Below the pieces are notes generated by a model, which worked only from the letters and a program-made list of their open reading frames with translations, ran no database searches and was not told the origin of the DNA. Positions 2,698 through 58,367 of a stretch of DNA of 64,000 nt are shown piece after piece. Both the position numbers and the translations under genes were made by a program. Each line of letters opens with the position of its first letter. The stretch's first letter is position 1. The stretch spans positions 5,828,001 through 5,892,000 of the forward strand of contig CM102284.1 of the NCBI GenBank assembly GCA_046563655.1, read 5' to 3'. This DNA comes from Yuukianura sp. NJ FZ-2021. Lineage: Eukaryota.

Positions 2698-4377
2698 ATG
2701 TCAATTCCCGCTGCAGTTTTGAATAGCTCAGACGTTGTGATCAGGATGACGCTTCCAGAAATTCCGGAAGTGCTTCCAAGTGTCAAAAAATTGACGCATG
2801 ACCAACCTAAAAACATTGCAGAAATTGACGCTGTGAAACTTGTAAGTATTCCGATGAAGAAACTGAAGTCAATCAATTAAAAAAATTTCTATAAAATATA
2901 AATTTTTATAAAATTTTATAGTCCAAATTCAATAGTTCTACTGGCAAATCACTTAAGAATTTCAAAATTTTACATATTTATGGGTGTTTAGCTCAAAAGA
3001 GAAGTCAGGAGTTGGAAATGTTTGGAAGAAGATATAGATGATTATATTTTTCTCAAATTTCTTAGAGGTAAAAACAACATACACAAAAAACTAGAACAAG
3101 AATTTGCAATTTGTATAAGTGTGGTTAGTGGAATTCCTTGATTTTATTGCTTGTTTTTTAGCTCGAGGGCTGGACATAGACAAAGCCAAGGTCATGTTAG
3201 CAAAGGTAAGGACCATGAGAATGCTTGAAAAAAAATTTGATGTGCCAAAAAAAATAATACAATTTCTGACTGCGACTTCTTTCTCATACGTTTTTTTTTC
3301 TTTTTAGTATTTCGAATTTCGCAAAACAAACAAATATTTTATTGAAATTAGCACAAAGCCTTATACCCCACCGCCATTTATTGCGGCTATTAAGGTGCCG
3401 TTTGTGAAGGTTCTTGACAGTGAGTCAAGGGCAGGTCAGTTTCTAGCCTAACTTAACTTAAAGTTAACTCAAGTGTACTGTGTGAATTTATGGTTGATGA
3501 GGAATGCTTTTTCAGCATTTATTATTGGAGTTGGCCACATCAATTTGAAAGAAATTTTCAACGAGGTGAGCCATTTCTGTAAAATAAATTTACATTGCAC
3601 TGTAACAAGTTTATTACTGACACAGCTTTAAGTAATTAATTCCATTGACTCAATACAGGTTGGAATGGATGATATTCTTCGACTGGTTCACTATGCTACG
3701 GAATTGGTTTATGCTATTGCAGAAAAGCAAAGGAAGAAATTCGGCTGCACTAAAGTAGTGATAGTTGCTGATCTGGAAGGCGTCTCTCTTCGAAATGTAC
3801 TTTTTCCTAAGAGTAAGTTATTATTAATCAAATATATTAATAAAATTATTATAAATTACTACACTCTACGCTTGGTTTTCAAATAAAACATGATTTTCAA
3901 ATGTCATTTTGAATTTCTGAAGGTGTGTCAGCGTCAATCTACGGGGCTCGATTTTTTGAGGCCTTTTATCCAGGTAAATCGGTTTTTAGTACATTGTTCA
4001 AAAAAGTATAAAATTAAAGTAATTCTTTCCCTTCGCAAAATTACTTACAGAACTCGTTCATGCTGGAATCGCCATCAACAGTAAACCACTTTTTTTAAAT
4101 TAAAGCTTTTATACTCAATTTCACTTCATATTTTACTCAAATTCACTTTTCAGCTAATTGGATATGTCACTACGCCTACAAAGTTCTTAAGCCATTCTTT
4201 AGTAGCGACACTTTGCGTAGAATTCAGATTTACGACCATGATGCTACAAAGTGGAAAACGGCTTTGAAAAATTATCTTCCAGAAGATGCAATCCCTACTG
4301 AATACGGTGGAACTGCTCCACCCCTGCAACTAACCATGGCTAAAGATATTTTTGAATCTCTTCTACAAGAAACTTAA
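2698..4377 (+). CDS. CRAL-TRIO/SEC14-like lipid-binding protein (copy 1)
   Basis: Many short exons splice to DDYIFLKFLR|ARGLDIDKAKVML, VIVADLEGVSL, final exon YKVLKPFFSSDTLRRIQI...LPEDAIPTEYGGT, typical CRAL-TRIO motifs; stop 4375-4377. Confidence 0.85.
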
Positions 4378-4883
4378 ACACTTAAATTTTAACTAATTAC
4401 AAAGTAAATTAATTGTGATACTGCGTCGTCTGATCTTTCTGAACTTGAATTTCTGTTTCTTCTGCTTGACGTGGCTTCAAAATGAAAATCTGTTCATTTT
4501 TTGCTCCCCCTGCTCAAACTTATATGTTGGTTTTGAACTTTGGAAATTGTGATGAGTTTGCATGAAGTAATCTTGATGAATTGTGGTTTCTGAAACGTCT
4601 GAATGTATAATCAGACACATATTAAGATTTTTTTAATAAATGCAGCGATGTAAACTGTTAGCTTTACAATGGGGCATCAAAAGCTTACAGTTCGTATTTT
4701 GCTGCTGATCGTTGTTCTTGAGTTTTTTCAAATCATCAAATCGGCACGTTCTGTCTGTTTAACACGGGTTTTGTAAAGTTTTAGAATTTCAGTTTGTCAT
4801 TTCTTTGCACAAGAAGTGGAAACTTAAAGTGAGTTCTGAAAGGTGAAGCAAAGTGCTGGGATTCTTTGTAAGTTTATGAGATC

Positions 4884-5953
4884 ATGAGTTCCAGCAGTTT
4901 TAGTGCCCCGAGGGGAAAGCCAATATTTGTGGTAGTCATGGGCGTGTCTGGAAGTGGTAAGAAACATTTAATCACGAGTTTCCAAAATTTACATTGAAAC
5001 AAAACTGAAAGCACGATCGAAATATACGTGACATAATTCAAAGATGAGGTCACGGAACGGGAACATTCAAAATTTCCAAAATTCCAACGTCCCAAAATTT
5101 CGAAAACTTAAATAACTTCAACGTCAAATAAAAATTTTTCCGTGCAACCTGCTCTAAACAAACCTTGTCCGCGAAAATAAATTTTTTGTTTGGATAAAAA
5201 GTTTATTTTTTCAACTTTTAATTTTGATGAAGGATGAACTAAAGCGTCTAAGCATTTTTTTTAAATACAGGAAAAACTACCGTGGGAATTGCTTTGTCTG
5301 AGAAATTGAATTTGCCCTTCCTGGATGCTGATCAACTTCACCCTACTTCAAATATTGATAAAATGAAAGCAGGTTGGACACAGAAACAAACCATGCAGCA
5401 ACTTACATCAAACATAAAACATAATCTACATAACAAACCTAATTTAAAAACTAGTTTAACTTACTCTTTTGAAGGAACACCTCTGAACGATGACGACAGA
5501 CTCGAATGGCTTCGGATTATAAGTTTGAAAATGGGCATGATCGAAGCCAACGAAGGTCAAGGTTTGGTCATCGGTTGTTCTGCACTCAAGGTCAAGTACC
5601 GTCGCATCCTACGTGGATTCTGCACAGGCTATTCTCCAGAATCCATAACAGAAAATGAGCGTCAAGTGCACTTCCTGTACCTTAAGGGTACTTTTGAACA
5701 GTTAAGTAGCAGAATCCAGGAACGCAAAGACCACTTCATGCCAGCCAGTTTACTTGAAAGTCAATTTGACGCTTTAGAAGAACCCACCGAAGCTGAAGGA
5801 GTTGACAGCGCAGGTCAAGTTAGAGGGATACTAGTGACTTCGACAATAGACTTCAGCGCTGAAGAAATCGCTTCGAAATTTGCACAAGCGGTTTGTGCCT
5901 TTCACGAAGTCACTAACGCCAAGCGATGTTACCTTTCACCTCCAACATTCTGA
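4884..5953 (+). CDS. IDNK: Gluconokinase
   Basis: Exons ~4884-4957, 5271-5372, 5475-5953. P-loop MGVSGS|GKTT, FLDADQLHP..NIDKMKA|GTPLNDDDR, CSALK..YR, HFMPASLLESQFDALEEP. Confidence 0.92.
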
Positions 5954-14507: not shown

Positions 14508-15800
14508 AACTTATAGCAACAAAAAACAGGTTTTTATTGCTATAAGTTAGACGCCGTATGAAAATCAATTATTTTCTTTCATGGTGTTTAAATAGGAATT
14601 CCTTACACAAAAACAATAAGGATTTTTAGCGGCGTGAAAGAATAGCATTAATAAAAAAGATAATTTTCAAGAAAATTTTCATGCTCAGCGACAAAATGAA
14701 AGGAGGAGAATGATAAGGAGTTCCTCACTTGTTGAATTTCAAATTCGTTTTATCCAATGCCTTAAACCTTAGAAGCAATGAATTCCATGAATTTTTTCAA
14801 AACAAATACTGAAAATGTACTTTTTGCAAAATTTTTGCACTAAAGTATGCGAAATATTGTTTCGCAACTTCAACTGGTCGATGGAGTTGCAGAAATTGTA
14901 AGAAAGTTGGAATTTTTTGAATTTTGTAATTTGGGAAATTGGAAAGTGTCCGGAGTGAATTTGGTCGATTTGAGATAGGGTATTGTACGGAGCAAAGGGG
15001 CAGGTAGCCCTTCTCTGCTTTTGGGATTTTTGTATAGGAAGGCCGCCAGCGGGAAAAAAGTCGAGAAAGGAGAGGAGCCTTTGTGACTCGCCTAATCTCC
15101 GCATAGCTCCGGACAGTTTCGAAGCAGAGCCTACCCCTCTGCAATGTTAAATCTCTTTCCAAAATTTCAGAAAATTCAAAAACTTTTAAAATTTATATCT
15201 CTTGAACAGAATGCGTTAGAGAGTTAATCTCTCCACTCCTGTATTCAGAATGATCTCTAGAATAGTTTAAGTCCAAAAACCCGAAATCGAAATTTCTACT
15301 AATTTTTAATAAAATTCTTGAACTATCATAGTCTATGGATTTTTTCAAATTTCATCAAAATTTTGAAGGTGCGTTTTTTTTGCGAAATTTTGCACCAAAT
15401 TACATGAAATGCTATTTTGGAACAATGAGCTGAGCGCTCAATCCACTGAAATCGCTGTAAAGTAGAAATTCAAAATTTTGTTCAACCTTTCTTCTCATTT
15501 GGTTTAGGCGCTAGTTATTTAAAATAATTCAGTCTAGCGTTATTAGCTTGTTTCAAATGAAAAAAATTTTTATGCCACTGTGAGGAGCTCTCTGAAAATT
15601 CGATTTCCCATTTTTCAAAACTTGACAAAATGTTGAAAATGTGTTTGGAAATGTTGTGTACCGAATTAAGCGAAATGTTGTTTTGCAATTTTACCCGGCT
15701 GAGGCCGATGGGCTACGGCATTGGAAAGAGTTGCAAGCTTCTGCAAAACCGCTGAATTTTTTAAAACGAGCATATTCTAAATGTGCGTTTCTTTGGAATA
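14508..15800. repeat. Dispersed non-coding repeat, copy A (unclassified, probably non-autonomous TE)
   Basis: Co-linear with 17240-18470 (offset ~2739 bp); shared core GGCCGCCAGCGGGA...TCGCCTAATCTCCGCATAGCTCCGG; left edge has a perfect 12-bp inverted repeat (14508-14519/14537-14548). Confidence 0.8.
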
Positions 15801-17239: not shown

Positions 17240-18950
17240 TTCAAAATTAAATCAAAAACTGAGGTTTTCATTACTAAAACTTTTACGCCGCGTAAAAATT
17301 AATTTATTTCTACCATGGTGCATAAACAGAAATTCAATACCCAAGCATAAAAATAGTTTTCAAACGGCGTGAGGCTATAGCAAGAAAAAAAAAGAATAAA
17401 TCAAGAAAATTTTCAATGTTCAGCAACAAAATGGATGCTGAAACGAAAATATAAATAGTTCCTCATTTGCTGAATTTCAAATATCTGTTTATCCGCTGAT
17501 TTAAACTTCAAAAGCACTGAATTCCATGAATTTTCTCAAAACAAATGTTGAAAATGCACTTTTTGCAAAATTTTTGCACTAAAGTATGCGAAATGTTGTT
17601 TTGCAACTTCAACTGGTCGATGGAGTTGCAGAAATCGTAAGAAAGTTGGAATTTTTTGAATTTTGTAATTTGAGAAATTGGAAAGTGTCCGGAGTGAATT
17701 TGGTCGATTTGAGATAGGGGATTATACAGAGCAAAGAGGCAGATAGCTCCTCTCTGCTTTTGGGGTTTTTGTATGGAAAGGCCGCCAGCGGGAAAAAAGT
17801 TGAGGAAGGAGAGGAGCCTTTCTGACTCGCCTAATCTCCGCATAGCTCCGGACAGTTTCCAAGCAGAGGCTACCCTTCTGCAATGTTAAATCTCTTTTCA
17901 AAATTTCAGAAAATTAAAAAACTTTAAAAATTCATAGCTTTTGAACGGATTGCGTTAGAGAGCTAATCTCTTCACGCCTAAATTCACAATGATCTTTAGA
18001 ATAATTTAAGCACAAAAAACCGAAATCGACATTTTTACTAATTTTTAACAAAATCCCTGATTTTTTGCAAATTTCATCAAAATTTTGAAGGTGCGTTTTT
18101 TGCGAAATTTTTGCACCAAATTACATGAAATAGTATTTTGGATCAATGAGCTGAGCGCTTGATCCACAGAAATCGCTGTAAAGTTGAAAATTTAAATTTT
18201 TTCTTCATAAGTGAAAGTTTTTTCTTATTTGATTTAGGCGCTAATTAAAATTTAAAGTAATTCTGTCTATGGTTTACCTAGCCTGAAATTATTAATTTTT
18301 TATGCAACGTTGACGACCTTTGTGAAAATTGGATTTCTCATTTTTCAAAATTTGATAAAATTTTAAAAATGAGTTTGGAAAAGTTTTGTACCAAATTAAA
18401 GCGAAATGTCGTTTTGCAATTTGACTGCTGAATTTTTTAAAACGAGCATATTTTGAATTTGAATGTGCGTTTTTTTTGCGAAAATTTTGCATTAAAATAT
18501 GCGAAAAGATGTTTTGCAACTTGAATCGAGCGATGGATTCACAGAAATCACTGCAAGTTTGAAATTTTTTAGAATTTTTTAAATGAGGAATTATGCATGT
18601 TTTTTTGGAAGTTTTTGAAAGAGTCTTTTACATGGGAGGCCTTCGGGAGAGCAGAAAAGTAGATCGGAGATTGTACGAAGCGAAGAGGCGAGATAGGTCT
18701 TTTGCTCTTGTGTGCTTTTTGTATGGGGAGGCCGCCAGCGGGAGAAAAGTTGAGGAAGGAGAGGAGCCTTTTTGAGTCGCCTAATCTCCGCATAGCTCCG
18801 GTCAGTTTTTCAGAGGAGCCTTCAATCTCGCTGTGTAAAATCTCTTTCCACAAAAAAACTCAAAAACTTTAAAAATTCATATCTTAGGGACGAAATGCAA
18901 TAAATTGTCAATTCCTTCGCCAATGGAACCTCAAAAATCTTCTTTTCAAA
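17240..18950. repeat. Dispersed non-coding repeat, copy B plus a more diverged partial unit
   Basis: Same orientation and sequence as copy A; core motif recurs at 17781 and 18731 (950-bp period). Edges approximate. Confidence 0.8.
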
Positions 18951-20933: not shown

Positions 20934-21444
20934 GGAATTACTAGTGAAAGTTTTTGTAAAATTATAAAATGTACAACGAATTATTACAAGTTGTCAAATT
21001 GATCTGATTTTGTGTAATGAAAAAAGCTCTCTGGAAGTGGTTACTGCTCTTAACGTCTATCTTTTACATATAAACTCAGTCACTAGGCTATGCATGTAAG
21101 TATATAAGTTTATCCGCAGAAATTTTTTTAGCCTTGGGTTCTTCCAAGTCCTCAACACTGCACTTTAACACTTCAAATCTACTTTCAGAAATGAGATGAG
21201 AAACAAAAAAAAAACTGTCATATAAGCAAACAGAATGTGATATTCAGCTTTCGGAAACAAAATTATTTATGAGTTGCTAATCGATACTACCCGCGTCTCT
21301 CCTTGATCAATCCACGCCAACTTTTGGAGAGAGACTGAGACATGCAAAATCCAATAGATTGGCTCTACATTTTGATATTTAATGGGAAGCGTTAACTTGT
21401 TACTTCGTCTGATAATCTTAACCTTTTAAATTACCAACTTGAAT

Positions 21445-22533
21445 TTATGTATCCTGATTCAATTGTACTTGACGGACCAACACCAAGATCTCCTTTCGAA
21501 ATTCAAATTCATCCCCTGGAGAAGATGTCACTTGCATTTCGCCAGATCGAAGCCCTTGAAGTACCGCTGACTTTTTTTCTTGAAGTTGCTTCCCTTTAGA
21601 TTTCAGTTCTTGACGAGCAGTTCCAAAGGAAATTAAGGCCAATTCGGTATGAATCCATTTCCGCAGAATCAGATCTGCCTGATGGACTTCGTTTTCGGCA
21701 CAAATTCTTCTGTCTCTGTTTGATGCTTCGACGGAACCATTCAGAGGAGTACTTCGAACTGGATTTGCAAGAGTGTAAATTAGGGTATCGTAGATCAGTT
21801 TATGTGTAGAAGAATCAAGGACATCGGAAATCTGAAGACACAGAGCATCAGCAGCATTTTGCAGAGGATTTGGTTCTTCTAACTTCTTGTTCATTTCGTC
21901 GATTACTCCACTTGGAACTCGATTGTCTTCATGTCGCTGTAAATTCCGTTCTTGGCAGACCGCAACGGTAGTTTTAGGGTAAAGAACACAAAAACCAATG
22001 CTATTTGATTTCGAAATTTGGTAGATGTCGTACCGCATGCTTTTGTAGTAGTTGTTGTCGTCGATAAGTAGAATGTAGTCTTGTGAACTGCTTTTAGAGC
22101 TAGTGGAGTTGTCAATTGTTTGTGTGGTACGGAAGACTTGAGATAGAAAAGCAGCAACAAGGGCTGCTTTTGGCAGTAGTTCTTCGTTCGTGTCCAGTAG
22201 GTCTGCTTCCTCTTCCAGGACTTTACTGAATCGATCTGGTTCTTGGTGTTCTACTCTTCCGTCTTGCAACGTCTTTACGAATTGGTCAATCAGTTTAAGA
22301 AAGTTGGTGCGTAAGGTTTTCGCCAATGTAGTATGTTGTACAAAGTGGGACTGGATGTGGATTGGAACAAGAGCATCAAACTCTAGAAGAATGATAGATG
22401 GAACTTCGTTCGCAGATTCCGATTTACACAACAGTGATGTCGTTAGTTTGATAAGTTCTTGGCACAAAGTTGTTTTACCAGAACCCGGGAGCCCCATCAG
22501 TGTCACTAGTGAAATCCTTTTCGAATTTTCCAT
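21445..22533 (-). CDS. PSTK: L-seryl-tRNA(Sec) kinase, single exon
   Basis: 362-aa ORF; N-terminal P-loop LMGLPGSGKTT, LLIDDNNYYKSMRYDIYQI, CQERNLQR, MNKKLEEPN, and C-terminal HQADLILRK, characteristic of eukaryotic PSTK rather than KTI12. Confidence 0.88.
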   Translation of the reverse strand: MENSKRISLVTLMGLPGSGKTTLCQELIKLTTSLLCKSESANEVPSIILLEFDALVPIHIQSHFVQHTTLAKTLRTNFLKLIDQFVKTLQDGRVEHQEPDRFSKVLEEEADLLDTNEELLPKAALVAAFLSQVFRTTQTIDNSTSSKSSSQDYILLIDDNNYYKSMRYDIYQISKSNSIGFCVLYPKTTVAVCQERNLQRHEDNRVPSGVIDEMNKKLEEPNPLQNAADALCLQISDVLDSSTHKLIYDTLIYTLANPVRSTPLNGSVEASNRDRRICAENEVHQADLILRKWIHTELALISFGTARQELKSKGKQLQEKKSAVLQGLRSGEMQVTSSPGDEFEFRKEILVLVRQVQLNQDT

Positions 22534-22582
22534 TTTTGAAACCGTATTGTTCAGCTAACTGGCACTACGAAAGGCTATTAGG

Positions 22583-22970
22583 TTATTTTGCACTTGGGGG
22601 ATCTTGCTTCGCTGCTTCTTGAGACTTGGCAGTTTCTTCGTATTCTTTCATTTTTCTTTCTTGAAATTCCGGATTAATTTCTACGTAGCACTGCATCAAG
22701 CGTTGATTGGCGTTAACACGTTTTCTAACACAAGTGTCCACACAACTAAGTTCGTCATTTTGAAGTTTCAGTTGCCCCATGTCGTAAACGCAATGCTTGA
22801 AACAACTTTCGCTCAATTTGTTGAAAAGATACAGGAAATCTTTTAGCTACAAAAACAAACAAAACCACAATTATTAAGAACCATGACCTATCTAATCCGC
22901 TAAAGGTAAAGCAAAAACGAGATGTGAATGTCGCAATGTCCCTTACGTTCCTCAGTTCCATAGAATCCAT
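22583..22970 (-). CDS. Small Tim chaperone, Tim9b/TIMM10B(FXC1)-like
   Basis: Exon 1 MDSMELRN (22970-22947) + exon 2 LKDFLYLFNKLSESCFKHCV...ELSCVDTCVRKRVNANQRLM; twin CX3C motif; C-terminal extension as in TIMM10B. Confidence 0.88.
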
Positions 22971-25304
22971 TACAAGGACGAGATATTAGTCCGTAGGATC
23001 AGTAAGACTGAATGTCACGAGGATTTGATTGGATTGACTTCCCTAAAAACAGTCCAGTTAAACCAGTCATAAACTGTAACAGTTTGAGCGGTAGAAACGT
23101 GATTAATCTTACCTTTTAAATTAAGCGATTCGGTGTATCGTCCTTCGACATTGTAATAACCAGGATAGGCGAAAACAAAGAGACGAGATTCAGACGATGG
23201 AAACCAATTGACATCCAAATCCAATGTACGAAGTATCGTAAATTTGAAGCTGACTCGATTCTTCCAGCGTTATCTACAAAGTAGCGTGAATTAGGAAAAT
23301 CTTATTAAACAAATGGAATACATTTGTGTAATACTGTATTTAGTGTAACAATTGAAAGCGAACGATTAATGAACAAACGAATTAATGAAAGAAAAACGAT
23401 TACTCACTCACCTTTCAATCGTTGCACGTTGTTGTGATTTTGATTGACAAAACACAAAAACAAATTTTGAATTCCCAGTCGGTAAATTTTTTCAAAAAAT
23501 TTCCCGCGTCCATGTCTCACCTTGCCCCATATTTGTTTTCGCGTTCCTGAAAATTGTAGAGCCAATTAGTTCCCTTCAACAAATGAATCACTATTTAAAC
23601 TACAACTACAATTAACATTTTAACGTTATTTATGCCTGTAAAACATATGCTAAGATTGTCGATTACCTTAATTTATAATTGGTAATACGTTACGTTAATA
23701 GTTCCATTGAGGAGAACGCTGAGTACAAAAATGGCTTACAAACATGAATTTCAAAAAATTAAGTTTACGAAAGTGAATTCTTTCAAATTTATTTCTTCAA
23801 CAGTTTCTCTTTTTTTAAACTTCTAAACCTGAAAGTGATCAGAGAAGTTGTTCAAATTTCTTTTTCTCTTTTTTGAAATTCCATTTTGTGTAAGTTTTAC
23901 AGAGTAACTTTAAAATTTTCTCAAAAACCAATAATTCCCCTTTACATTTAATTATTATTTCTCATTCGGGGTGAATTTGTGTAAGGTTACGAGTTTAGTT
24001 ATTAAATTTATAGAGACAACCACCATAAAATGAAGATCAAGAAAATAAAATCTTAGGAATATACATACTAAATGGTGATCTACTTTTACGCCTTCCTTGT
24101 ACTGGGTGGGAATTATTCACGAAAAGACCTCTACTTCCTCCCATTAACTTATTACCAAAAACAGATTTTAGGAATTGAATCATTCAAAATAACAACAACT
24201 CTTCCCTTTCTTCCCTCAATTAGTAACTGTGATTAACTTAATTAGTAAAGCTTACACAAATAAAACTAAAAAATTTCAACACTTAGAGTTAGTCCATTTA
24301 GTAGGCAGCATTACCATCATGATTTAGCTAGAGAGGCAAGACACAACTATTTGTCTACACTACAAATTACTAAAGAAAGATTAAACATTGAAAAATAGAA
24401 AGGAAAATGCAGCTAAAAGTGGTACGTAAACTAAAGTCTAAACTTTACGACTTTCTAAACAATCTACAACTGTTAAAAACGACTTGTACACACCATTTAA
24501 AACTGAGGAGCTAACTATAAACTAGCTAAGGTTAAAACTAAACACAACTAAACTTAGCTACACAAGTTAAAACTAAAGACAGACAAGAAAGCAGTACTAA
24601 ACATTTATCTGTCTCCCATTTTAAAATATTCATAGATTTTTAAACCCCTCTGAAACACTTAAGACATTTCGATTGTAATTTGTAACACTACTTTCTACTT
24701 TACATTTTCAAGTTTCTGCTTTTCTAACTAAACATTTAATTAGTATTACTTAAAAGTAACTTCCATACTTTTTTCTGAAATCCTACACCAATATTTATGT
24801 ATTTCACAAATATTATACCATATTATACCTTTCCTTGTGAATATAACTGGATTTGTAATTAATTTTTACCAACAAGTTAATTACAAACAACAAACAGAAA
24901 AATGCGTTAAAAAAGAATTTGTACTCGTCTCCTGAATATCTCCAACCTCTTGCACCATCATCATCTTTGACCCTCCATTTCTTCACTTCGATCAGAAACT
25001 GTGACTTGACGTTTACTGCATGACGGCATTTCGTTTGTAGATTTCAACACAATTGGCAGCAAGTTGAGGTTGTCTTCTGAATTCCTCTGGATTTTCTGAT
25101 CTTCCCGTCGCCTCTTGCTTGACTAAACGATTCACACTAAAACATTTGACATTCTAAATGCTAAGTTCTAAACTTTACGTGTAAACAGTGCTCTTTGGAA
25201 AGTAAGTACAAGAATTCGGGAGGTTATTCCTATTGCACACGTTGGTTGGTGATGATGAGATCTTAGATCGTCCTTTCCTTCTGCGCTTGTGTGACATCAG
25301 CTTC

Positions 25305-43484: not shown

Positions 43485-44456
43485 CACGTTCAGTCCTTCT
43501 TGGAAAATGCTGAGTTAGGTACGGTGATATTTTATTTGTCTTCGTTATAAAATCCTGATATCGATTCCAGGACCCTTAGTTCAGTCTCTCAAGATTCCTT
43601 CGCCGTAATTATAGTTACTGGCAGTTTGGCTTAAAGACAATTGCGGAGTGCGGACGAAGAGCTGACTCCGACGATTGAAGGTGAAATTGAAGTAGATTCG
43701 GATTCTGAAATAAACGAAAAGATTATTCAGTGAGTGATGCAATAAAACCTTCCAGATCCAGATTGTCCCTAGCAGTACTGATTTTTCACAACGCCCTTTC
43801 CGTGCAGTTCTACTAATGTGTAGTTTACGATTTACAGTCAAGCGTAACACTAAAATTCAAGAATGATAATAATGCGCTAGTTGGTCTTTAGTAACAACGT
43901 TTACCTTACGTTTTACAGGTTCAATCTTAGAGACGGGAAAGTTAGTATTTCATAGGGGCGTTTGCCGATGTAGTAGTATAGTAGTGTGTTGTGTAAGTAA
44001 GTAATCTCAAAGGAACAACTGAAGATGTTGGGCACGGATCATTGGATAGGGAATCACAACTGATACCATCCTGGACAACTAATCTGTGATTGAACTTAAT
44101 TGACAATTAAGGGATAGGAATCCAATTCAATTGACAGATTACCAGCTGAGGAGATGTCGAACTAAAAACTCTAGAGGTTTTTTACCGACCGAAAGCCAAC
44201 GAGAGAGCAGCGAACACAGGAGAAAAAAGATAAAAAAAGGGGAAAAAAATCTAAAAAATCCGAAAACAAAAAAAAAGCTCTTTTGATTTTCCCGCATTTT
44301 TTGAATTGTCTCAACTACTCCTCCCGTTTGCAAAATTGTAAGACAATAACAACACAAGGTCAAAAATTTCGCAAAAACGTTTTAACGCCATTGCATAATT
44401 TTGTAGTAAATTATCCCACTATTCCAATTTTGTTTTAGTCTAATTGAATCAAAATA

Positions 44457-45053
44457 CAGTGGATTCTCTAAATAAGGGACAGGAGCTCCTCCTCTTTCTC
44501 ACTTTCACTCGAAGTCGCGGTACCGTAAAGTTTTAATTTTGGAGGGAACGTATGTTTCAGTTTATCGGCTTATTTTTTACGATTGTTTTTTTTGGTTAAT
44601 TTTTTTTTGGTGCGAAACAAAAGTAATTAGATAATTAAATGGAATTAACTAATATTAATATATATATTATATATATACAGTGCTCACTGTATATCTGCGC
44701 ACAACCTGCGCAACAGCGCACAACCTGCGCAACAGCGCACTGTATATAATATATTATATTATATAACCTGTTTAATAAGGGTGACATTCACAGCGTAATT
44801 TGCATATAATATACCATATAATATTGATTAGTATATAGATATCACATATAATTAGCATTAATATATGAATATTATGTATATTAATATTAATTATATACTC
44901 TGAACTTCGAAACAGGAAATTTTCATTAGAATGGTGTTCCTAGCCTTAAATTCCATATAACTGACCGTTTACCAGAAATCTTACGGTACTGAGGGAGGCG
45001 CCTACTACCAATCCTCCAATCGTGATTTTTTCCCTTATTTAGAGAATCCACTG
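44457..45053. mobile_element. MITE, Tc1/mariner-pogo type, ~600 bp
   Basis: Perfect 23-bp TIR CAGTGGATTCTCTAAATAAGGGA (44457-44479 and 45031-45053), TA on both sides, AT-rich interior with no ORF. Confidence 0.88.
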
Positions 45054-48000
45054 TATAAAGTAAAAGTTAAAGCAATTTAAGGCTATGAGATGAGTAGGTT
45101 TTGCGTATCATTGCGTAATTCAAGTAAATTGACAAGATAATTGCGTCAACTAAGCTTGAAATACTCAAAATGAAATTGGAAACTCCGTTTGATGCTTTCC
45201 AAATGGAAGTTTATGCTCCAAAAAGACTTTCTTCGTGTCACAAATTCTCCGTGCTCCTTGAACTTTCTCTTTTGCGGTCAAAGTTCATTTATTCTGATTA
45301 AGTGCTAAGTCCCTGGAGGGAATACCTGTGAAAGGTCAACTGTAATTTGATTAGGTTAGATGTGGTTTTCGTAGTGAGAGCAAAAGTGGTAAAGCTTTCA
45401 ATTTCCATAATTTAAGGACCACCGCCACCTTCACCGTGTGCGGTGGTTTTTAAGCCTCAATTTGATTTACAAAAAGACGGAAGCACGGCAGCAAGGAGTT
45501 TAGAGCAGCCCCGAGGAGCGGTGCGCGGTGAAAGTGCCGCATAGAAGCACAGGCGAAAGCAGCAGGTGAAGTGTGGTGTCTTTTTAAGGGGGTGTAGGCG
45601 GCACGAGCAGAGTTTTCAGTAACAAAAGAAGAGGAAAACTAGGTGAAAGTTCGGCTTTCGAGTGAGAAAGTTATGTAACAAAAATGTACGGATTTTAGGA
45701 ACTTTGGTTTTAAAAAAAATTTGGAACAGCGTTGATGGAATTCCGCTTCACAGGTGAAAGAGATGAAAAAACAGCCGTGAAAGTTTCAAAATGTAACGAT
45801 GCTTTTTTTTTTGTAAACTTTTCGAGGGAAAAACTAATGTCGGGATTTTGTAGTTTTTAGTTGGAGAAAGTTTGTCTTTTGGAAAATTTTTACCGGAAGG
45901 AACGTACGTTATTGTTTTTCGGTATTTTCTAATCCGTCCGGGTTAGTTCTACGACTAGCAGCTTATCGTCGTATCCACACACAGCAAGATCCGTTCCTTG
46001 ACGGCCTAACTTTTTAGAAAACTAGAGCGAGTCTAAAGGGAGTTCTAGTTTGGTGCATGGGACCTTGGGCAGATCGATACGGAAGTTTCCTAGGTAACTA
46101 TGAATGACGTTGAGCAAGACTTCGCTTTCCCCTGGCCTAACTTTCTCCCTACACTTCCAGTTGCCTCTAACCATCACACCATCAACGAATAGTCTAACAT
46201 TATTCCACTAGTAGCACAACTTCAAATTAGAAAAAAAATAGAAAAATTAAAAAAAAAACTAAATACTAAATACTAAACGAAGAAAATAAGGTGACTTGAA
46301 TCTACAAACAGCTAAAGCCAATCCCTAAAGTCAGCTCAATTTAAATCAAGTTGATCCCTACGAAGTCACATGATTTAACTCAAATTCCAAACATTTCAAA
46401 AAATTTACGAAAAAAAAGTTCCATCATCAACGAAATCTGACTTTCACTTTCTTTCACTTTCGTCAAGTGACAAACACGATTTGTTCTTACTAATTCGCTA
46501 ATTCACGAAACATCGACCAACAGTTTTACATCCTTCACAGGAAATCGTTGCGGTAAGAAATATAACCAAAATTCCCTGTTTGGGGATAAATTTAACATAA
46601 AAATTGCAGTTTTGTTGCAAAACGAAGGTCAGTTTTGCACATTCGGTTGTCGTCTACCGTTATGCACGTTTTTTTCTTGGTTTGGGAATAGTACTACCAA
46701 CTACGTACGTGAAACATTTCATATGTACATTGTAATTACAGTATAATGGGATGTGCAGTGGTGCTGTTTAGTTAGTGGTGAAAAACAGTCGAAGAAAGTG
46801 TTTTCTCCTAAATTTTTTTCTGTTTTATAAAGTTTGATAAACAAATGAAGTTAATAATCGATAGAAGATTCAAAAATAGGAGCAGCAGTGGCCAGAAAGC
46901 AGTAAATGTCGAGTTCAAAACTTTGGTGAAAGCAAAAAAAATGTAAGCTGGGCTGGGGTTAGGTTATGTGATTAGGAATAGTTTAGGTTATGTTAGCTGA
47001 AGTTATATAAAGTTAGGCAAGGATCTTTTTAAGGGTTAGGGTTCATGTTTCCCACAATACATAAAAGAATGATGGCGTGAGTATCAATTTCATTTTCGTT
47101 TCTTTTCGTAATTTTCTCCGTTTTATCTTTTCAACTTAAGCCCTCGAGGGATCCGCAACTTCAAACTAAAAATTCAATTTCCTTGTTCTCATCTTCGTAT
47201 TTCTTCATGACAGTGACAAGCAGTAAGTATGGTGGTGGAGAGACGAAGTTTTAAGATCAAGGATTGAATTCATGATCTCAAACAAAATACATTTGAGTAG
47301 GATCAATATTCGTAGACAAAAATACAACTGAAAAAGGCAGAAAAGGGAACCACGAAAATTGGATTGAAAATCCAAGTGCCAATTTCCCCATTTCATTTCA
47401 CTTTTTTAGAATTTGCGTGTTGCAAAGACGGAGTAGAAACAAAACCAATTTTATAAGGCTTTGCAGTCTCATTTGAACACGACAAATACTTTTTTTAGAA
47501 CCGAAACACGCCAATTTTTATGTTTGCAAAAGTTAGGTTTTCTTTGCGCTAAAAGTCTAACCTCCGTGTCACATCAACTTTTTTCTCTTAGTTTCCGCTT
47601 TCACTGACCTTCAAAATTTGCACTCACCCGCATAAAATTTTTGTTCGCGCGCTTTTCTGCAATTCCGGAACCAATGAAGCCTTAACTGATGCAGGTACAG
47701 TCTAGCGTCAGTCAGGAAGAGAAAGCAAGGTCAAGGAAACTACTACAGGTAGGAAGTACAGGAAATGCGGGCTAGACTTCCTGTACCGCATTTTTCAAAA
47801 ACGTGATGAAAAACGTTGCAAAGTTTTTTTTTGTATGGAAAATTTTGCAATATGTTCGTTAATTTCGGTTTCGGTTGACTAATAAGCTGGAGGAATTGGT
47901 TTGAATTTGAAACTTTCTATCTTTTGGGAAGAATTTGTTCTAGTTTTTCTTACCTCTTGAGATTTTGTGGAAGCTCTTGCGTGTAAACTGACTCTTGTTG

Positions 48001-48412
48001 TGTCCAAGTCCAAGGAGAAAGTTAGAGAAAGTGAGGCCTCCCCCTGGAGCGGTGATTGATTAAAGTTCTGGGTCACTCCTTCGCCCACTCCCGTGTCACG
48101 GTAGGATCACTCCATCATCTTGTTAGTTTTAACAACCAGAAAGTGTATCAAGTACAAGGTGAGGTCAAAGATCACGCTCTCCATCAGGCCATGAAAGTAA
48201 CTGAAACGAAAATCAGCAAAAGTTAAAACATTTTCAGCTAACCTAACCATATCTAATACTATCCTGCATAAATGCATTCACAATTTACTAAATCACTACA
48301 TTGTAAATCTGAATGAAAACATAACCTAATCATGTCCATCCAAACTAACTTACTCTAACAGTTCTGTTGTAGTAACACTTTTTTATTTAATTTCAAACTG
48401 ACTAACATAAAC

Positions 48413-48474
48413 AGCCTATTTGCGAATCTACGCAAGTCAACTTAGCCTATTTGCGAATCTACGCAAGTCAACTT
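48413..48474. repeat. Perfect 31-bp tandem duplication
   Basis: AGCCTATTTGCGAATCTACGCAAGTCAACTT twice. Confidence 0.9.
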
Positions 48475-49679
48475 TCCCGAACGTTTTGGTTTCGGATAAA
48501 ATTGACCTTATTTTACAATTTAGAAAAATAGAAAGTTAGTTTCTGCTAGGTTAGGTTTTTTGGCAAGTTCAAAAAAACTTGGCTCAGGGAGGCTCTCAGG
48601 CTGTATCTTTCAATTGGGAAACCACGCGGAAATGTGAAACCATGCAGAGAAAGTAGCCTAGGGCACAGGGGATTAGCAGGATCAAAGAAAGTTAACAATT
48701 CCCTCACTTGGTCACTGGGGATAAAGTTAGGTTTTGCTGATAGATGCTTCTTTGGTTGTCCATTACTTTAGAAGCCCAGGGCATATACAATATAAGGTCA
48801 GACAAGCACACAAACTGAACAAAACCCGCCAATTCCTGGCTTTCTCCGAAAAAAATAGTTCAAATAAAAATCTTAAAAGGTTCAAAAGAAATTGGTTCTT
48901 CAAAATGTACAAACACGCTTTCCTGGAATCTAGAAAATTCCTTTCTTGTTTTGTTTAGTTTCACTTTCCTCTTAACTCGCTACTTGACAATTTTAAGCAC
49001 ATCCGAAGTACTACTTCACTTTCCTTTTTCCAGGATACACGCTCCAGGAATCGATCTTAGATTCTAGGCCACATGCATTTGTACACAGAAAGTGTCCTTC
49101 GTTCATCTTCCTCTGTTTTTCTAACCTAAATTTTTAACTTCAACCGAACTTGTTGCCAGCACTCTAACTTTGTTCTAAAAAGTATCATTTTCAAGACAGT
49201 TCAAAATTAAATTAGAGAAAAGTTTGTCAAAAATTTAACGGATTGTCACACAAGCTGGTGCGCCTCAGCTGAATGACAGGCGGAGGGAGTAACTATACAA
49301 AAACGTTCCAGTAATTTTCCAAAACCGTCCTTCCCGGATCTGTCATAAGGAAAGTAATGAAGCCACACTTTCACTTTCCAATTGAAACTAAAATTAGCAG
49401 AAGCAAGAGAAGCTACAAAAGTAAATTTGAACAAAGTGAAAAATAATTAGCCCAACCTAACTTAAAACGCAAGTTAGGCTAGCTTCCGCTCTGTTCTGCC
49501 TTTAGGGTACTCATATTCCAGTTTCACACTTTAACTGAAAAAACTAACATAAAAGTTACTAATTTTCTTTGAATTGTTTCCAGACAGTTGAACGCATCTT
49601 GTGGCTTTCTTTTCTTTTCATTATTTCATTCATCAAAAACTTTTTCAGTTTTATGAAAGAACTCTGACGGCCGATTGAC

Positions 49680-49944
49680 GTCATTCGGATTTTGGCTAAG
49701 AGAGAGCATCATCTCTAAAAAAAAATTCTGGAGAAAAGTGTCAAAAACGTACTTTGTCTTAGGTTCAGATTTAGAGCGAGGGAGCGGGTGATGCCAAAAC
49801 TGTAAAATATGGGGGTCATTCGGATTTTGGCTAAGAGAGAGCATCATCTCTAAAAAAAATTCTGGAGAAAAGTGTCAAAAACGTACTTTGTCTTAGGTTC
49901 AGATTTAGAACGAGGGAGCGGGTGATGCCAAAACTATAAAATAT
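49680..49944. repeat. ~135-bp tandem duplication
   Basis: Near-identical units starting GTCATTCGGATTTTGGCTAAG at 49680 and 49815. Confidence 0.9.
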
Positions 49945-50591
49945 GAGACACTATAGGTCAGATTAGTTCTGGAGCAAAAGAAAACCGAGTTTGAATTGAC
50001 TTCACAAAGACACCGACTCTACCAAAAGTTCTTACTAAAACCCGGGTTTTTACCCGCAATTTTTGAGACTCATATAGCTTCGATGTCCTTTTTGAATGAC
50101 GGAAATCGTGCGGAAATGCCCGAGAAAGGTTTGATTTTTTTGTTAGGTTAGACTATGCTCTCCCTCGCTCCCGGTTGCTTCCTCACTGTGCGGGTTTTGA
50201 TCCTGGAGCAAATCCAACTTTGACTTCATTCCAGAACTTACTAGTGGTGAGGAAGCAACGAGGACTCCTTGTTTTGGAGAGTTTGAAATTTCGGTTTTTC
50301 TGAAACAAAACCTTGGTGATTTGGGTCTGGTGTTGGAAGATTAGAACCACAAAGGCCACTTTAGCACACAACGTCAACATTAACTTTAGACTTATTACAT
50401 CGAAATTTAAACACGAACTTTCACTTTTGTTTGTTAATTTTACAGAAGAGAAGATGCACAGAAGTAAGTCGGATTGTGGCGAAGAAATGGACATGCTAGT
50501 GGTAGCAAAAAGTGAAAAGTGTTGAGAAACTGGAATTTCCTGAAATTTTGAAAAAGTAGTTTCGATTGTATTGAAAAAGTGATTTTAAAAA

Positions 50592-53500
50592 ATGCCGGAA
50601 CAAAGTAATGACTACAGAGTGGTGGTTTTCGGGGCCGGGGGAGTTGGCAAATCCAGTTTGGTGCTAAGATTTGTCAAGGGCACGTTTCGTGATTCATACA
50701 TTCCAACAATTGAAGATACGTATCGACAGGTACAGTGCTTTCAACAATTTCAAATATCAGTTTTCAAAAATTTTTAAATTTTTTGAAACAAAAAATTTCA
50801 AAATTTTGTAGCTAATTTCTGCACCGGCCAAACGCCGTTCAGAAAATTTTTCAGTTTTATCATGTTACGAAAATGAAAAAATCCAATAGATAGCTCTTGG
50901 CTATTTATGGGAAAAAAAATTACACAAAAAGGAAAATGCTATGTTATTTTTTGTAATTATTCTATTATAGAAAAATATATTTTATATTTTTCCAGGTGAT
51001 TAGTAGTAATAAGAACATTTGTACACTTCAAATCACAGACACAACAGGATCACATCAGTTCCCGGCCATGCAGCGCCTCTCTATAACCAAAGGACATGCC
51101 TTCGTAAGCCTCGCTTTCCAAATTCATTTGCTAACTTTCTTTTTACCACTTTTTCAATTCCAAAATGAACTTAAAAAAAATTCATATCTTAAATTTTGAA
51201 AAAATATCCAATGCTTTTTGGTCAGATCCTTGTCTACTCCGTCACTTCTCGCCAAAGTCTTGAAGAACTCAAACCCATCTGGGAAATGATCCGATCAATC
51301 AAAGGGGATCAAGAAGATCACTCGGTATATAGACACAGTGTTTTCAAAAACCAGAGAAAAATCTATAAAAAGAAAGTTTCAAAAACTTTTTCATAACAAT
51401 CTTTTCAAAATTTTCCAGTTAAAAGACATCCCTATTATCCTAGTGGGCAACAAGTGTGATGAACAAGAAAATCGGGAACTCACACAGGTAAGGATAAGAA
51501 ATTTCTTTAGCCAATAAACTTTACGCAATTTTTTATTGAAAAGTTAGACTTTACTAGGTTTACGTTAAGTTATTTGAAAGTTCGATCCAAAAAAAAGTGA
51601 AAGTCTTTTCTCAAAATTTTGTGAGGTAAAAGCAGAGAACCTGGTTTGAAATGAGATCAATTGTTGAAAAGCCTCAACTTTCCTTCCCTCTAGAATCTCT
51701 TGACCTGGACGTTGTCTCTCCTATTCTTTAATTCATGAACTTCTTTTCACTTTCACAGCACAACTACCCCCTTCCTACGTCTTTTCCCATTCCCTGGTTG
51801 TTCAACTTCTGAAACGCAGGAATTGAATGCTAGAAATTGGGAGAAGAGACTCTGTCAGAAACTACTTTTCGTTCTGAATTATTTAGTAACTTGAAAACCC
51901 CGAATAATCGAACAGATCGTTGGAGGGTTTAGGAAATAGAAAGCAACGTAGAAAAGAATCGGTCCTCCTCGGATTTGAAAACGTAACGCAAAGGCTCGCG
52001 TCAAATTTATCCAAACTAACCATTCAGCAGTTGACTTTCACTTTTCCGCTACCACAAACCAAGCTGACATCTTTCTAAATGTTCAGTACATTTTTTCAAA
52101 AAAAAATCAAACAAATCAATCAAGGGAAATTACGAAATTGAATAAAATTCGGCTTTTCATAAATATACTCTTGAAACTACACATAACCTAGGAGAAACCA
52201 ATGCTTAAGTTCAATGTTTCATCCATTCTTTTGCTTCTGGCATCAAAATTTGACGGATTTTGAAAATTCAATAAAAATAAAACAATAAAAATATTGCTTA
52301 TTTCTCTGAAAGTGAAAGTAAAGGTAATTAAAAATTTTGCAACTTTCGACAAGTAGTGATTTACAAATGTCAAATTTTGAGCTTTTCAATCCGATAAACT
52401 TATCACAGTAGAAAGTCCTGTAAACTTTCACCTCGAAAGAGAAAGCTCCGCGGGATACCGCATTAGTTTCACTTTTTAGCATTTTGTAAAGTCAGGTCAA
52501 GTTTCTCCATCCAACTAGAAGGAATTTGCCCTTATAAAATTCCATTCATGAAAAGGTCAAAGGTCACCGCTTCGCTTCCTCTTTTCAAAGTAAAAGTTTG
52601 AACTGAAGCGCAAAGCCTTTAAATTCTAAAAATAAAACAGAGAGAGAAGGGATTTTTCGAAAATAACAATACTTGAGCTTTGCCACTTTAGAAATTGGTG
52701 GGTAAGCTCTGGTGAAAGTATGGGTGGAAAAAATCAGAAATTATCTTTGTATTAACATTGGAAAATTATTTTTGAACCCATTAGTTGAGGTTTTTCAGAT
52801 TTTTAAAAGTCTGCTGAACAACTATGTAAAAGCAACAAAGGATTTGTGGATTTAGAGATGAACGAAACAGTAATTTATCTGTGTATTTTCCGGTTTTCAT
52901 TTGCGTCATAACGGTTTTTTGGAGATTCGGTTTCACCAATTGTGTTTAGAAACAGAATGGACGAGTAAAAGCAGGAAACAGGATACACTAGTTGTAAGTA
53001 TTTATATACAATATAAATATATAAATACACTATATAAACCCTAGCCTTCATAGCCTCAGCGTAATGACGCTGCTATTCTACAGTGCTGAATTTGATTTTG
53101 AATCGAAACGGATTCGGATCACTTCCCGAAACTATTTGTGGAGCAAAGAGGATATGCATTCTTTTCAATTCAAAGAGAAAGTTTTCCAAAAAGAAAAGTT
53201 CAAAAATTCAAACCGATTTCAATTTGAAACGGAGATGAAAAAGTTTTGCTAATTTTGAAAGTGAAAGAGTTTTTTGTTTCTGAGGAGAAAGTGAGAGCAG
53301 CTTAAGACTCTGTTTAATGAAAGAAAGTTTCTTAGAAAAACAATTTGCGTGGTTTTTAAAAAGGTTCCCCTTAAGCTTCCGAGTGAAATAACGTGTGACT
53401 GTTTGTTGAAGTTGTGGCGGCGCCTAATAAGGAAGTTTGAAAAGTGAAAGTTAAAGGTCAAGGTCCATTGTCTCGGAGTAAAGTGAGACCCTGGCCAAGA

Positions 53501-56500: not shown

Positions 56501-56554
56501 GGGTCATCCAAAGTATCTACAAATAAAGTCAAAGAAAAATGCTCCTTAGTCTGA
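50592..56554 (+). CDS. DIRAS: Di-Ras small GTPase
   Basis: Exons 50592-50729, 50996-51103, 51226-51324, 51419-51487, 56345-56554. [46 protein letters not shown] (Di-Ras signature), NKCD, ETSAK, CAAX box CSLV. Confidence 0.95.
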
Positions 56555-58367
56555 AACAGAAAAAATTTCATCCGAAATTTTTCGCAACTCCTTCAAAATT
56601 TCATCAAAAACGAATTTTTTTTTGGATGAAAATGACCCCGGAGAAAGTCAGGAAATGAAAAGTGGAGCATAGCAAAAGTGCAAACTGTCTTCTAAGAAAT
56701 AACCTTCTTAAGATTAGACTTAGCTTTTACTATAAAAGTATACTTGCAAGGGAAAGCGAAAAGAAAAACTTTTACTTTTTTCAAAAAAAAAGTTTCAATT
56801 CTTAAAAAAACTTTTCAAACTTCACTTGTTAATTAACTTTTTTTGAAACTAGTTTTTCTCAAGGTCGCAAAAATTCCCGGAATATCATCTCATCTCTCGC
56901 ATTTCGCTGTATCTTGCATCTCAATTAGCAACTTCAAAAATATCATAAAAAACCTGGTTGTAAAAAGCTGTACCTCTTGTCAAAATTTTGACATTTTTCA
57001 GTAGAATCGGCTGAAATGCTTTTCTAAGAATCCTTTTTTCAAACTAACGGTAGAGTTGAATTTCGAAGAAAAGAATCAAGAAGTACCGGAAATTTGGAAA
57101 AAACGAAATGTAAAAACGGATTTGATTAAAAACAGTGCTTTTGAAAACGAAAAGAGAATTTTTAGACAAATTTGAAAAATCAAGAACGAGTATACCTGAA
57201 TTGTCGAACATTTCAAAATGGAAAGAAAAAAAATCAGCAAGAACGTGTTTTACCTGTGCGCTCATCATCATTTTAACGCTAATTGCAACTAAATTTAATT
57301 AAAAGGTTAGGAAAAAAACAGAGTTTTGAAAACTCTTTTTGAAAAGCTAGAAAGCGTGATTTCCAACTCAATGTAAATATCAACTAAAAATTAAAATGTA
57401 CCTCTAGGTGCTGACCGTTGAGAAGGTCAAAGGTCAAAGCTAAAAAAAAATTAAAATGTAGCCGTCCCCTTCCCCAGACTTCAAAAGTACTAATTAACAT
57501 TACCATTTTGACCAGTTGTGTTAATTAATTTACTAATTACAGTAAATTATTTAGAAAAAACTCATTTCATAGGTAACTAAAATTGCTGTACCAGAAAATA
57601 TGTAAAATATCCGATGCATCGTTAGATTTATACGAAACGTAAAATTCGAATTTGTAAAAACTTTAACTCCGAACACAAAAATCACCCATTCTCAAAACCT
57701 TTTAAATATAGTAAATTTTTTCAAAAAATCGAATGGCGTGACACGACGTAAAATTAAGATTTGCGTACCACTGTAAAGCATTAAAAGGGAACTAAAAATT
57801 TGTACAATTCAAAAAAATTGTCGAAATGTTAATTGCAATTAGTTTTCCAAAAGTGTAACACTTGACTTGACTCATAAGCAAATTCAAAATTGATTAATTT
57901 GAAGGTGCTACTGTAATTCATAATTGTTTTTTCTAAACTTATTAAGCTTGTCCGCTATAACCTAGCTAAAAACTTAAAATTTTTAGGATAAGTTTAAGAA
58001 AATTGTAACTGCACTGTCGCAGATTTCATTTTCAAATGAAAGAAGAGATCTGCTTTAGAAAAAAACGTGGCTAATTGTAAGATTTTTAGACTAATTCCTG
58101 TAATTATCGAAATTGTAATCTCTCGTCGGACTTTTTAGACAAAACTTCAAATCCATTAATATGTCACGAATGAATATGAATCGAATCGTTTCAATGCAAT
58201 AAATTTTATTCCTAAAACTTTACACTGTTTTAGAAAATAATATCTATGCTATGTTTTTATGGTGAAAAACATATTGCATAACATAGATAGATAAAATAAC
58301 CTAATATAGATCAAATCTATACAGATTCGTTTTCTTAAACAGAAAAGTTTGAGCAACAAAACTTAAT

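Follow-up and report, generated by a model that had tools for sequence, protein, structure and literature searches.

Tim10B and PSTK as a probable dicistronic pair in a springtail, with a counterpart in the Drosophila Tim9b–CG12788 locus

Two open reading frames on the minus strand of the Yuukianura sp. NJ FZ-2021 genome, encoding a small Tim and the kinase PSTK, are separated by 49 nt, as originally predicted: the Tim stop codon ends at 22583 and the PSTK ATG is at 22533 of the 64,000-nucleotide stretch analyzed here (the window). This arrangement raises the question of whether the two frames are expressed from one mRNA and, if so, how the second is translated. We conclude that Tim10B and PSTK very probably share one mRNA in the springtail, and that reinitiation has a somewhat better than even chance of being the main route to PSTK protein. 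To the explanation as a whole, i.e., a shared spliced mRNA from which PSTK is made by reinitiation, we assign a probability of roughly 0.55.

Identity and anatomy of the two genes

The first frame is Tim10B (Tim9b) rather than another small Tim: its second exon matches PF02953 (1e-11), its best PDB match is human Tim10B (7cgp_J, 2.2e-14; Tim9, 1.3e-7), and five other small-Tim loci are found elsewhere in the genome. Coding begins with eight codons at 22947..22970 (minus strand, as for all features below; ATG at 22970, with G at −3 and at +4) and continues past a 100-nt phase-0 GT–AG intron (22847..22946), the only junction yielding an open 95-codon frame and the one also chosen by our splice model, into a second exon that carries the twin CX3C motif and ends in a TAA stop (22583..22846). 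The start codon and the phase-0 intron position are the same in five related loci (L009, L011, L013, L025, and L027). The Tim region had been drawn as reaching 23445, but the start at 22970 makes 22971–23445 leader or promoter and not Tim coding; this segment has no homology to related loci and contains a single ATG-led frame of 32 aa without a Pfam match, and on these grounds we dropped the idea that the leader encodes a third conserved ORF. Within and above it we place a probable 70-nt leader intron (23043..23112; score 14.1 in the splice model, which made 72 picks in real DNA versus 10 in shuffled DNA), a possible short upstream ORF (23116..23214; 32 aa from ATG 23214 or 11 aa from ATG 23151) that could matter only if transcription begins above 23214, and a probable promoter or set of alternative first exons (23404..23523). 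The last of these has donor-like sites at 23520 and 23411, as well as a word at 23507 that we take to be E2F-like, adjoining a presumably CHR-like word at 23496.

PSTK (L-seryl-tRNA(Sec) kinase) occupies 21445..22533 as a single open frame of 1089 nt (362 aa), with an ATG in the context TCAAAA-ATG-G (A at −3, G at +4), and is the single match in the whole genome. It groups with named Folsomia and Orchesella PSTK sequences in a quick tree (clade support 98), and its structure matches are to PSTK only. Assignment to KTI12 was rejected, given its place in the PSTK clade and a separate, intron-bearing KTI12 on contig C5. The TIGR03575 profile returns 131.7 bits (E 3.6e-38) against a curated cut-off of 382 bits; the named Lingula PSTK, at 194.5 bits, does not reach it either, so the cut-off appears ill-suited to invertebrates. 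Compared with the eukaryotic L-seryl-tRNA(Sec) kinase family (TIGR03575) and archaeal structures 3adb and 3a4l, the springtail protein conserves the P-loop, the DDNNYY-SMR block, and the C-terminal HQAD-LRK block, and is a putative kinase phosphorylating Ser-tRNA(Sec). The genome contains corresponding components of the selenocysteine machinery: a tRNA-Sec with a TCA anticodon, SepSecS, and an SPS gene with an in-frame TGA (UGA) at the active-site position.

The 49-nt spacer (22534..22582) lacks ATG, AATAAA/ATTAAA, and stable structure, and contains a single weak candidate 3′ splice site, 31 nt 5′ of the PSTK ATG. The absence of AATAAA, earlier taken to favor a shared transcript, is real but is no evidence, because only 0.03 occurrences are expected by chance in 49 nt of this composition. 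A likely poly(A) signal for the whole unit, ATTAAA, is found at 21378..21383, 61 nt past the PSTK stop; AATAAA follows that stop by 56–114 nt in L009, L011, L025, and L027. No poly(A) hexamer intervenes on the minus strand from 23793 to 21383. Extension of the unit to Gcat was rejected, and Gcat is taken as an ordinary neighbor, because the gap of 473–512 nt carries a poly(A) hexamer in both the window and L009. PSTK was also described as the sole intronless gene in the window, which is true of the recognizable genes but unproved window-wide, with few matches in 44000–58000 and 60300–63600. The multi-piece genes comprise a sugar transporter, CRAL-TRIO, gluconokinase-like, COQ9, ArsA/ASNA1, Gcat-like, PHD, UPF0239, Ras-like, and SIP1/Gemin2 genes.

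The pair in related genomes

Tim10B precedes PSTK in 13 of 30 metagenome loci, drawn from springtail, Daphnia, and copepod clades (12 of the other 17 have no upstream sequence and five have no Tim), and, among the 14 arthropod-clade loci that extend far enough upstream, 13 have Tim10B immediately before PSTK. Neighboring genes vary between loci while the pair stays. Together with a fused Tim–PSTK gene model in a stick insect, this survey upholds the proposal that the linkage is ancient. Fused models among PSTK matches were judged from N-termini and precomputed Pfam columns; a search of longer proteins for further examples found none, a weak negative. The non-arthropod-like PSTK loci differ, with introns in L034, L037, and L038 and no Tim within 4 kb upstream in L028 and L029. 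In humans, TIMM10B and PSTK map to separate chromosomes. The arthropod pair appears to be orthologous to Drosophila Tim9b–CG12788 and to have arisen before hexapods, water fleas, and copepods diverged.

Five of the 13 Tim-linked loci (L012, L016, L026, L014, and L024) resemble spliced cDNA spanning both frames, as judged from their sequences, which lack introns present in genomic relatives. L012 and L016 end on the same base past AATAAA, and L014 and L024 start on the same base. Such contigs can also arise when an assembly joins overlapping, separate transcripts. With the Drosophila and Anopheles precedent, the linkage and these spanning contigs make the single transcription unit of the original prediction likely.

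The suggestion that an intronless second cistron avoids NMD fares less evenly. PSTK is intronless in every springtail and Daphnia-clade locus, and spacer introns begin no more than 50 nt past the preceding stop (+48 in L013; +3 in Tim8A–Pex3), but in the Tim-linked copepod locus L022 the PSTK frame is interrupted by an intron about 420 nt past the Tim stop. A retrocopy origin accounts equally well for the absent introns. The three copepod-clade PSTK introns differ in position from each other and from one common to two non-arthropod-like loci, as would be expected of later gains. It is conceivable, if quite doubtful, that an intronless PSTK retrocopy landed in the Tim10B 3′ UTR early in pancrustacean history and displaced the intron-bearing gene, and that it has stayed there since because PSTK output is metered by translation of Tim10B, so that selenoprotein capacity is coupled to mitochondrial biogenesis; this would date the linkage to roughly 500 million years ago.

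Routes to the second protein

In the favored explanation, a single housekeeping promoter upstream of about 23100–23500 would drive a spliced mRNA with Tim10B first and PSTK second, ending past the ATTAAA at 21383. Most ribosomes would make Tim10B; a minority of small subunits would stay bound past the Tim10B stop, move along the spacer, which is short, unstructured, and free of AUG, and initiate anew at the strong PSTK ATG, giving a low, steady supply of PSTK sufficient for one catalytic step on tRNA-Sec. Spacer lengths in the window and the 13 loci are −4 (an ATGA overlap in L030), 10, 21, 28, 44, 47, 49, 54, 54, 67, 95, 127, 143, and 299 nt. ATGs are depleted in the spacers (5 observed versus 15.1 expected in 13 spacers; P about 0.017 for the 9 of 13 left when near-duplicates are dropped), and a purine occupies −3 of the PSTK ATG in 13 of 14 loci.

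A dicistronic mRNA might instead be read by leaky scanning, in which subunits coming from the cap skip the Tim start and go on to the PSTK ATG. Tim starts are indeed weaker (A at −3 in 4 of 11, versus 10 of 14 PSTK starts), and the window Tim ORF holds one out-of-frame ATG where 3.2 are expected. Summed over eight loci, however, out-of-frame ATGs in Tim ORFs are not depleted (26 versus 28.8 expected, P 0.26), each ORF has one to six internal Met codons, and six ATGs, one in strong context (22780), occur in the window from the Tim start to before PSTK. We favor reinitiation over leaky scanning, which seems very unlikely, because the spacers are ATG-depleted and the Tim ORFs are not.

Several observations count against reinitiation. 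The 95 codons of Tim10B exceed the ORF length of about 34 codons past which reinitiation drops sharply in plant assays; the two shortest spacers, of −4 and 10 nt, leave little room for the ordinary process; and a spacer poor in AUG would be just as likely if it served as 5′ UTR to a separate PSTK mRNA. No TGGGA word (UGGGA, which we take to be the motif of calicivirus- or TURBS-type reinitiation) is found near the stops in any of 14 loci. A check for a structured IRES also found none, the fold of 22500–22700 being weaker than 194 of 200 shuffles (z = +1.8).

A separate mRNA would require no unusual translation if PSTK had its own start site in the 3′ part of Tim exon 2 or in the spacer, with overlapping transcripts in a compact genome (98.7 Mb), a reading that we regard as unlikely. 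In 11 of 14 loci, the nearest ATG ahead of PSTK is 112–199 nt away, and in flies a downstream promoter is the usual source of 3′ monocistronic transcripts (Crosby et al. 2015, PMC4528330). Yet the AUG-free Tim tail largely follows from its codons (2 observed versus 4.4 expected, P 0.10), no poly(A) hexamer is present to end a Tim-only transcript, both frames occur together on the cDNA-like contigs from relatives, and 22946–22533 contains no DRE, TATA, Inr, or E2F-like word, though this is a weak test.

Splicing offers a further route, unlikely in our estimate, in which one shared promoter serves both genes and PSTK comes mainly from a variant whose Tim frame is lost or disrupted, e.g., with a leader donor (23112 or 23411) spliced to the spacer AG that precedes the PSTK ATG by 31 nt, while the two-ORF mRNA yields mostly Tim10B. 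Such variants are on the FlyBase record for CG12788 and Tim10; the best internal AG precedes the PSTK ATG by 31 nt in the window, 32 nt in L009, and 10 nt in L013 (score 5.4); and a retained Tim intron shortens the frame to 9–22 codons in five of six genomic loci. In the window, however, the retained-intron frame is 71 codons, and the spacer AG scores −0.2 versus a typical 6–11, under a weak model that gives the true L009 and L013 acceptors −3.4 and −1.9; with the same weak model, Daphnia locus L025 has no candidate (best −6.5). Splicing of the first Tim codons in frame onto PSTK, with the AG at 22555 as acceptor, was rejected (score −10.5, frame lost in L009 and L013), and none of 155 PSTK-like proteins has a Tim-like N-terminus.

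Comparison with known dicistronic loci

The original statement that Drosophila Tim9b is dicistronic with the PSTK ortholog proved sound: Tim9b (CG17767)–CG12788 is a curated dicistronic locus in Drosophila melanogaster (PMC4528330 File S1; PMC2276209), its frames lie 162 nt apart with Tim9b classed as "di/polycistronic only" (PMC4528330 File S1), and the Anopheles pair is found together on one EST. By eye and unaligned, CG12788 (supplement of PMC4528330) displays the PSTK P-loop and DDN-YY-SMRY motifs. Genes, order, and strand are identical in fly and springtail; the spacer is short (49 nt here, 162 nt in Drosophila), and the first ORF is a Tim10B of ~100 codons. The fly pair has cDNA support and also yields a monocistronic CG12788 mRNA through a splice variant (FlyBase), whereas the springtail pair is described here from DNA sequence. 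The published range ends at Diptera and the present genome belongs to the springtail clade. Our survey adds springtails, water fleas, and copepods to the known distribution of the pair, with a stick insect as a probable further case, and its second gene can now be named as the kinase for selenocysteine synthesis. In the literature searched, we found no paper with both Tim9b and PSTK. The functional coupling of mitochondrial import to selenocysteine-tRNA synthesis in the original prediction is hypothetical. FlyBase lists Tim9b and CG12788 as "unrelated" by protein similarity; ~82% of fly polycistronic loci are not built of similar genes, and few are known as functionally related (PMC4528330).

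If reinitiation is right, the pair would provide a natural case after a full 95-codon ORF, across spacers of −4 to 299 nt. It also carries a warning for annotation: gene finders fuse both genes (P0267) or may overlook one. The springtail genome keeps a second fly dicistronic pair, CG42497 (DUF4748)–Tim10, in which a small Tim likewise sits in a two-ORF unit but as the second ORF; its partner is a 65-aa protein, and in the springtail the spacer is 93 nt and the second frame intronless. Stop-to-start distances at exclusively polycistronic fly loci run from −34 to 319 nt (PMC4528330), and the two separate, conserved, same-strand ORFs described here fall inside this range at 49 nt, as do the 13 related loci (−4 to 299 nt). 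With 159 pairs of this sort curated in Drosophila (Crosby et al. 2015, PMC4528330), Tim10B–PSTK does not represent a novel type of system and is a further case of a known dicistronic pair whose range now reaches beyond Diptera.

Anatomy and identity of the Tim10B–PSTK pair

The frames for Tim10B (Tim9b), a small mitochondrial import chaperone, and PSTK, the L-seryl-tRNA(Sec) kinase, can be read directly from the sequence, both on the minus strand and 49 nt apart, as first described. Tim10B starts at the ATG at 22970 (−), with eight codons preceding a phase-0 intron of 100 nt (22946–22847, −) whose acceptor is the only one of 12 offsets tried that gives an open 95-codon frame, and stops at 22583 (−); the 362-codon PSTK frame runs unbroken from 22533 to 21445 (−). 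Left unspliced, the Tim intron stays open as a 71-codon frame (22755–22970, −); in five related genomic loci the unspliced frame closes after 9 to 22 codons. The 49-nt spacer contains no ATG and no AATAAA or ATTAAA. The missing AATAAA, originally offered as evidence for a shared unit, carries no weight because only 0.03 is expected there by chance. More telling is that the minus strand is free of both hexamers between 23793 and 21383, where a poly(A) hexamer lies 61 nt past the PSTK stop.

The Tim exon matches PF02953 and, among solved structures, is nearest human Tim10B (2.2e-14), followed by Tim9 (1.3e-7); the same organism's genome (G000) has five further small-Tim loci, all away from this pair. 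TIGR03575 aligns with the second protein at residues 10–334 (E 3.6e-38) with a score under the curated cut-off, which a named Lingula PSTK also fails to reach. Its structure matches are to PSTK only, and it has a single match in G000; the paralogue KTI12 was rejected as its identity, being a separate split gene on contig C5. A quick tree of 107 proteins groups it, with support 98, in a clade of 16 rows that includes the named PSTK proteins of Folsomia candida and Orchesella dallaii; a springtail host is therefore very probable. G000 also carries tRNA-Sec, SepSecS, and an SPS gene (L071; G000:C7:364499-367621) in which the active-site position is encoded by an in-frame TGA.

Recognised neighbouring housekeeping genes are intron-rich (a Gcat-like gene has seven coding pieces), so the 1089-nt intronless PSTK stands out. 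The claim that it is the window's sole intronless gene holds for the recognised genes, all of which are in several pieces, and does not extend to the parts that are unannotated. Elsewhere in the window, at 5363–5474 (+), a gluconokinase-like frame continues through an apparent in-frame, stop-free intron, and two near-identical copies of an element, probably a repeat (14769–15192 and 17508–17885, −), carry a 111-codon frame without a Pfam match.

Linkage and introns in related loci

Metagenome contigs, scanned once using 18 aligned PSTK sequences, gave 30 loci, which are non-independent and represent four or five lineages. Tim10B lies directly upstream of PSTK on the same strand in 13 of the 30: L009, L011, and L013 in the springtail clade; L025, L027, L030, and L031 in the Daphnia clade; L012, L016, L026, and L022 in a clade with a named Eurytemora (support 82–94); and L014 and L024, unplaced. 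The L025 protein groups with named Daphnia pulex and pulicaria proteins; L031, outside the tree, was assigned by likeness to L025, and L026 by 92 to 95% DNA identity. Twelve loci begin within PSTK or no more than ~130 nt from it and are uninformative on Tim. The remaining five extend upstream of PSTK but carry no Tim there: L018 (790–1670) is a broken second PSTK copy close to L009, with frameshifts and stops, that keeps part of the spacer; L028 and L029 (both 3992–4957), from one unplaced organism, have an intronless PSTK whose 4 kb of upstream DNA contains no small Tim, with a good 3′ splice site ~40 nt upstream of the PSTK ATG; and L032 and L036 are apparently not animals. A Timema cristinae gene model that joins PF02953 to PSTK suggests that the two are neighbours in a stick insect as well. 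An ancient, conserved linkage, which the original prediction made conditional on the fly precedent, is borne out by the springtail, Daphnia, and Eurytemora clades, and its range over springtails, Daphnia, and copepods is new. Flanking genes shift while the pair persists: L009 (2741–6262) has the Gcat-like gene downstream of PSTK, as in the window, with the end of a PHD gene beyond it on the opposite strand, a local rearrangement, and L011 has none of the window's flanking genes. In L030 (205–220), the Tim10B stop and PSTK start overlap as ATGA (−4 nt).

PSTK is intronless in every springtail- and Daphnia-clade locus, and the second frame is likewise intronless in two further small-Tim pairs in G000. 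In one (L041:1173-3078; G000:C8:14217769-14220918), a Tim8A-like gene (stop 1707) precedes a Peroxin-3 frame (ATG 1858; PF04882, 4e-29), with a candidate GT–AG intron in the spacer (1710–1775) and no poly(A) hexamer between the Tim8A-like stop and the Pex3 frame; Pex3 and Tim8 are not on the fly polycistronic list in the available text of Crosby et al. (2015, PMC4528330). In the other (L039:895-1818; G000:C3:12297078-12300263), a DUF4748 frame (stop 1374) is followed after 93 nt by Tim10, with AATAAA at 1813. Spacer introns begin 3 nt (Tim8A–Pex3) and 48 nt (L013) past the first stop, both within the 50 to 55 nt limit under which NMD tolerates introns so close to a stop. The proposal that PSTK is intronless to escape NMD agrees with these spacer introns and intronless frames. 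Two points speak against a strict NMD constraint: Tim-linked L022 has a GC–AG intron inside PSTK ~420 nt past the Tim stop, and fly NMD is mostly independent of exon junctions. By eye, the copepod-clade PSTK introns (L019, L021, and L022) lie at mutually different positions, and L034 and L038 share one position unlike those three, a pattern that, in this small sample, would suit an ancestral PSTK copy that was intronless, perhaps retroposed.

Transcripts and translation of PSTK

Five contigs (L012, L016, L026, L014, and L024) contain the Tim10B and PSTK frames together, without the early Tim intron that every one of the six genomic springtail and Daphnia loci has. Also missing from L012 are the two Tim introns and the PSTK intron that interrupt its relative L022 (Tim identity 70% across 33 aa). 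L012 and L016 end on the identical base, right after AATAAA, and L014 and L024 start on the identical base. These contigs, newly added here, look like assembled cDNA, in which overlapping transcripts may have been joined by assembly, and would lend indirect support to a single mRNA.

A splice variant of the fly type may supply a monocistronic PSTK mRNA; in Drosophila, monocistronic mRNA for CG12788, the gene second to Tim9b, arises by alternative splicing that breaks the first CDS (Crosby et al. 2015, PMC4528330). A splice model, with 264 kb of G000 as training DNA, makes 72 picks in real and 10 in shuffled DNA; it predicts a leader intron (23112–23043) and donors at 23411 and 23520. Its best spacer AG is weak (−0.2), but this score is not decisive because in two relatives the true acceptors fall below zero as well.

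Under leaky scanning past the Tim start to the PSTK ATG, the first ORF should contain few ATGs. In eight of the 11 Tim ORFs that are complete, after removal of near-duplicates, 26 ATGs are out of frame versus 28.8 expected under synonymous resampling (P 0.26; for PSTK as control, 90 versus 88.3), and each ORF has one to six internal Met codons; only the window's own Tim ORF is low (1 versus 3.2). These newly added counts argue against leaky scanning. Spacer ATGs are depleted (5 versus 15.1 in 13 spacers, with the L013 intron removed; P 0.017 on nine of the 13), PSTK starts are strong, with a purine at −3 in 13 of 14 loci, and the junction region is unstructured in a fold test. Together with the one ATGA overlap, this pattern would fit best with ribosomes reinitiating at the PSTK ATG after terminating at the Tim stop; against this reading, the efficiency of reinitiation falls after long ORFs in other systems. 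A separate PSTK mRNA with the spacer as its 5′ UTR also fits the ATG-poor spacer and strong start.

Comparison with the dipteran pair

The proposed Drosophila precedent is confirmed, as far as the available text of the sources goes: Tim9b–CG12788 is a dicistronic, conserved uORF–mORF pair with EST support as far as Anopheles (Hayden and Bosco 2008, PMC2276209), and Tim9b is present on the dicistronic mRNA only (Crosby et al. 2015, PMC4528330). The accessible part of the former gives no function for CG12788; its printed sequence carries PSTK motifs, judged by eye. Insects without selenoproteins lack pstk, and D. willistoni has a possible pseudogene still in place, Tim9 being unmentioned in the text available (Chapple and Guigo 2008, PMC2500217). 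The linkage can be undone, because PSTK is lost or decaying whenever selenoproteins are lost. A literature search, thin on subscription papers and preprint supplements, found no description of the pair beyond Diptera or of Tim9b with PSTK, and TIMM10B and PSTK co-mentioned only in a human RNA-seq study, in the text available.

The pairing is real, and its dicistronic state was already known in Diptera. Many fly dicistronic pairs are unrelated genes (Crosby et al. 2015, PMC4528330), and on the plainest reading, by analogy with these, PSTK would be a low-demand enzyme riding on a housekeeping transcript. The DUF4748–Tim10 pair is the counterpart of fly CG42497–Tim10, and the window's 49-nt spacer compares with 162 nt from the Tim9b stop to the CG12788 start in Drosophila (Crosby et al. 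2015, PMC4528330).
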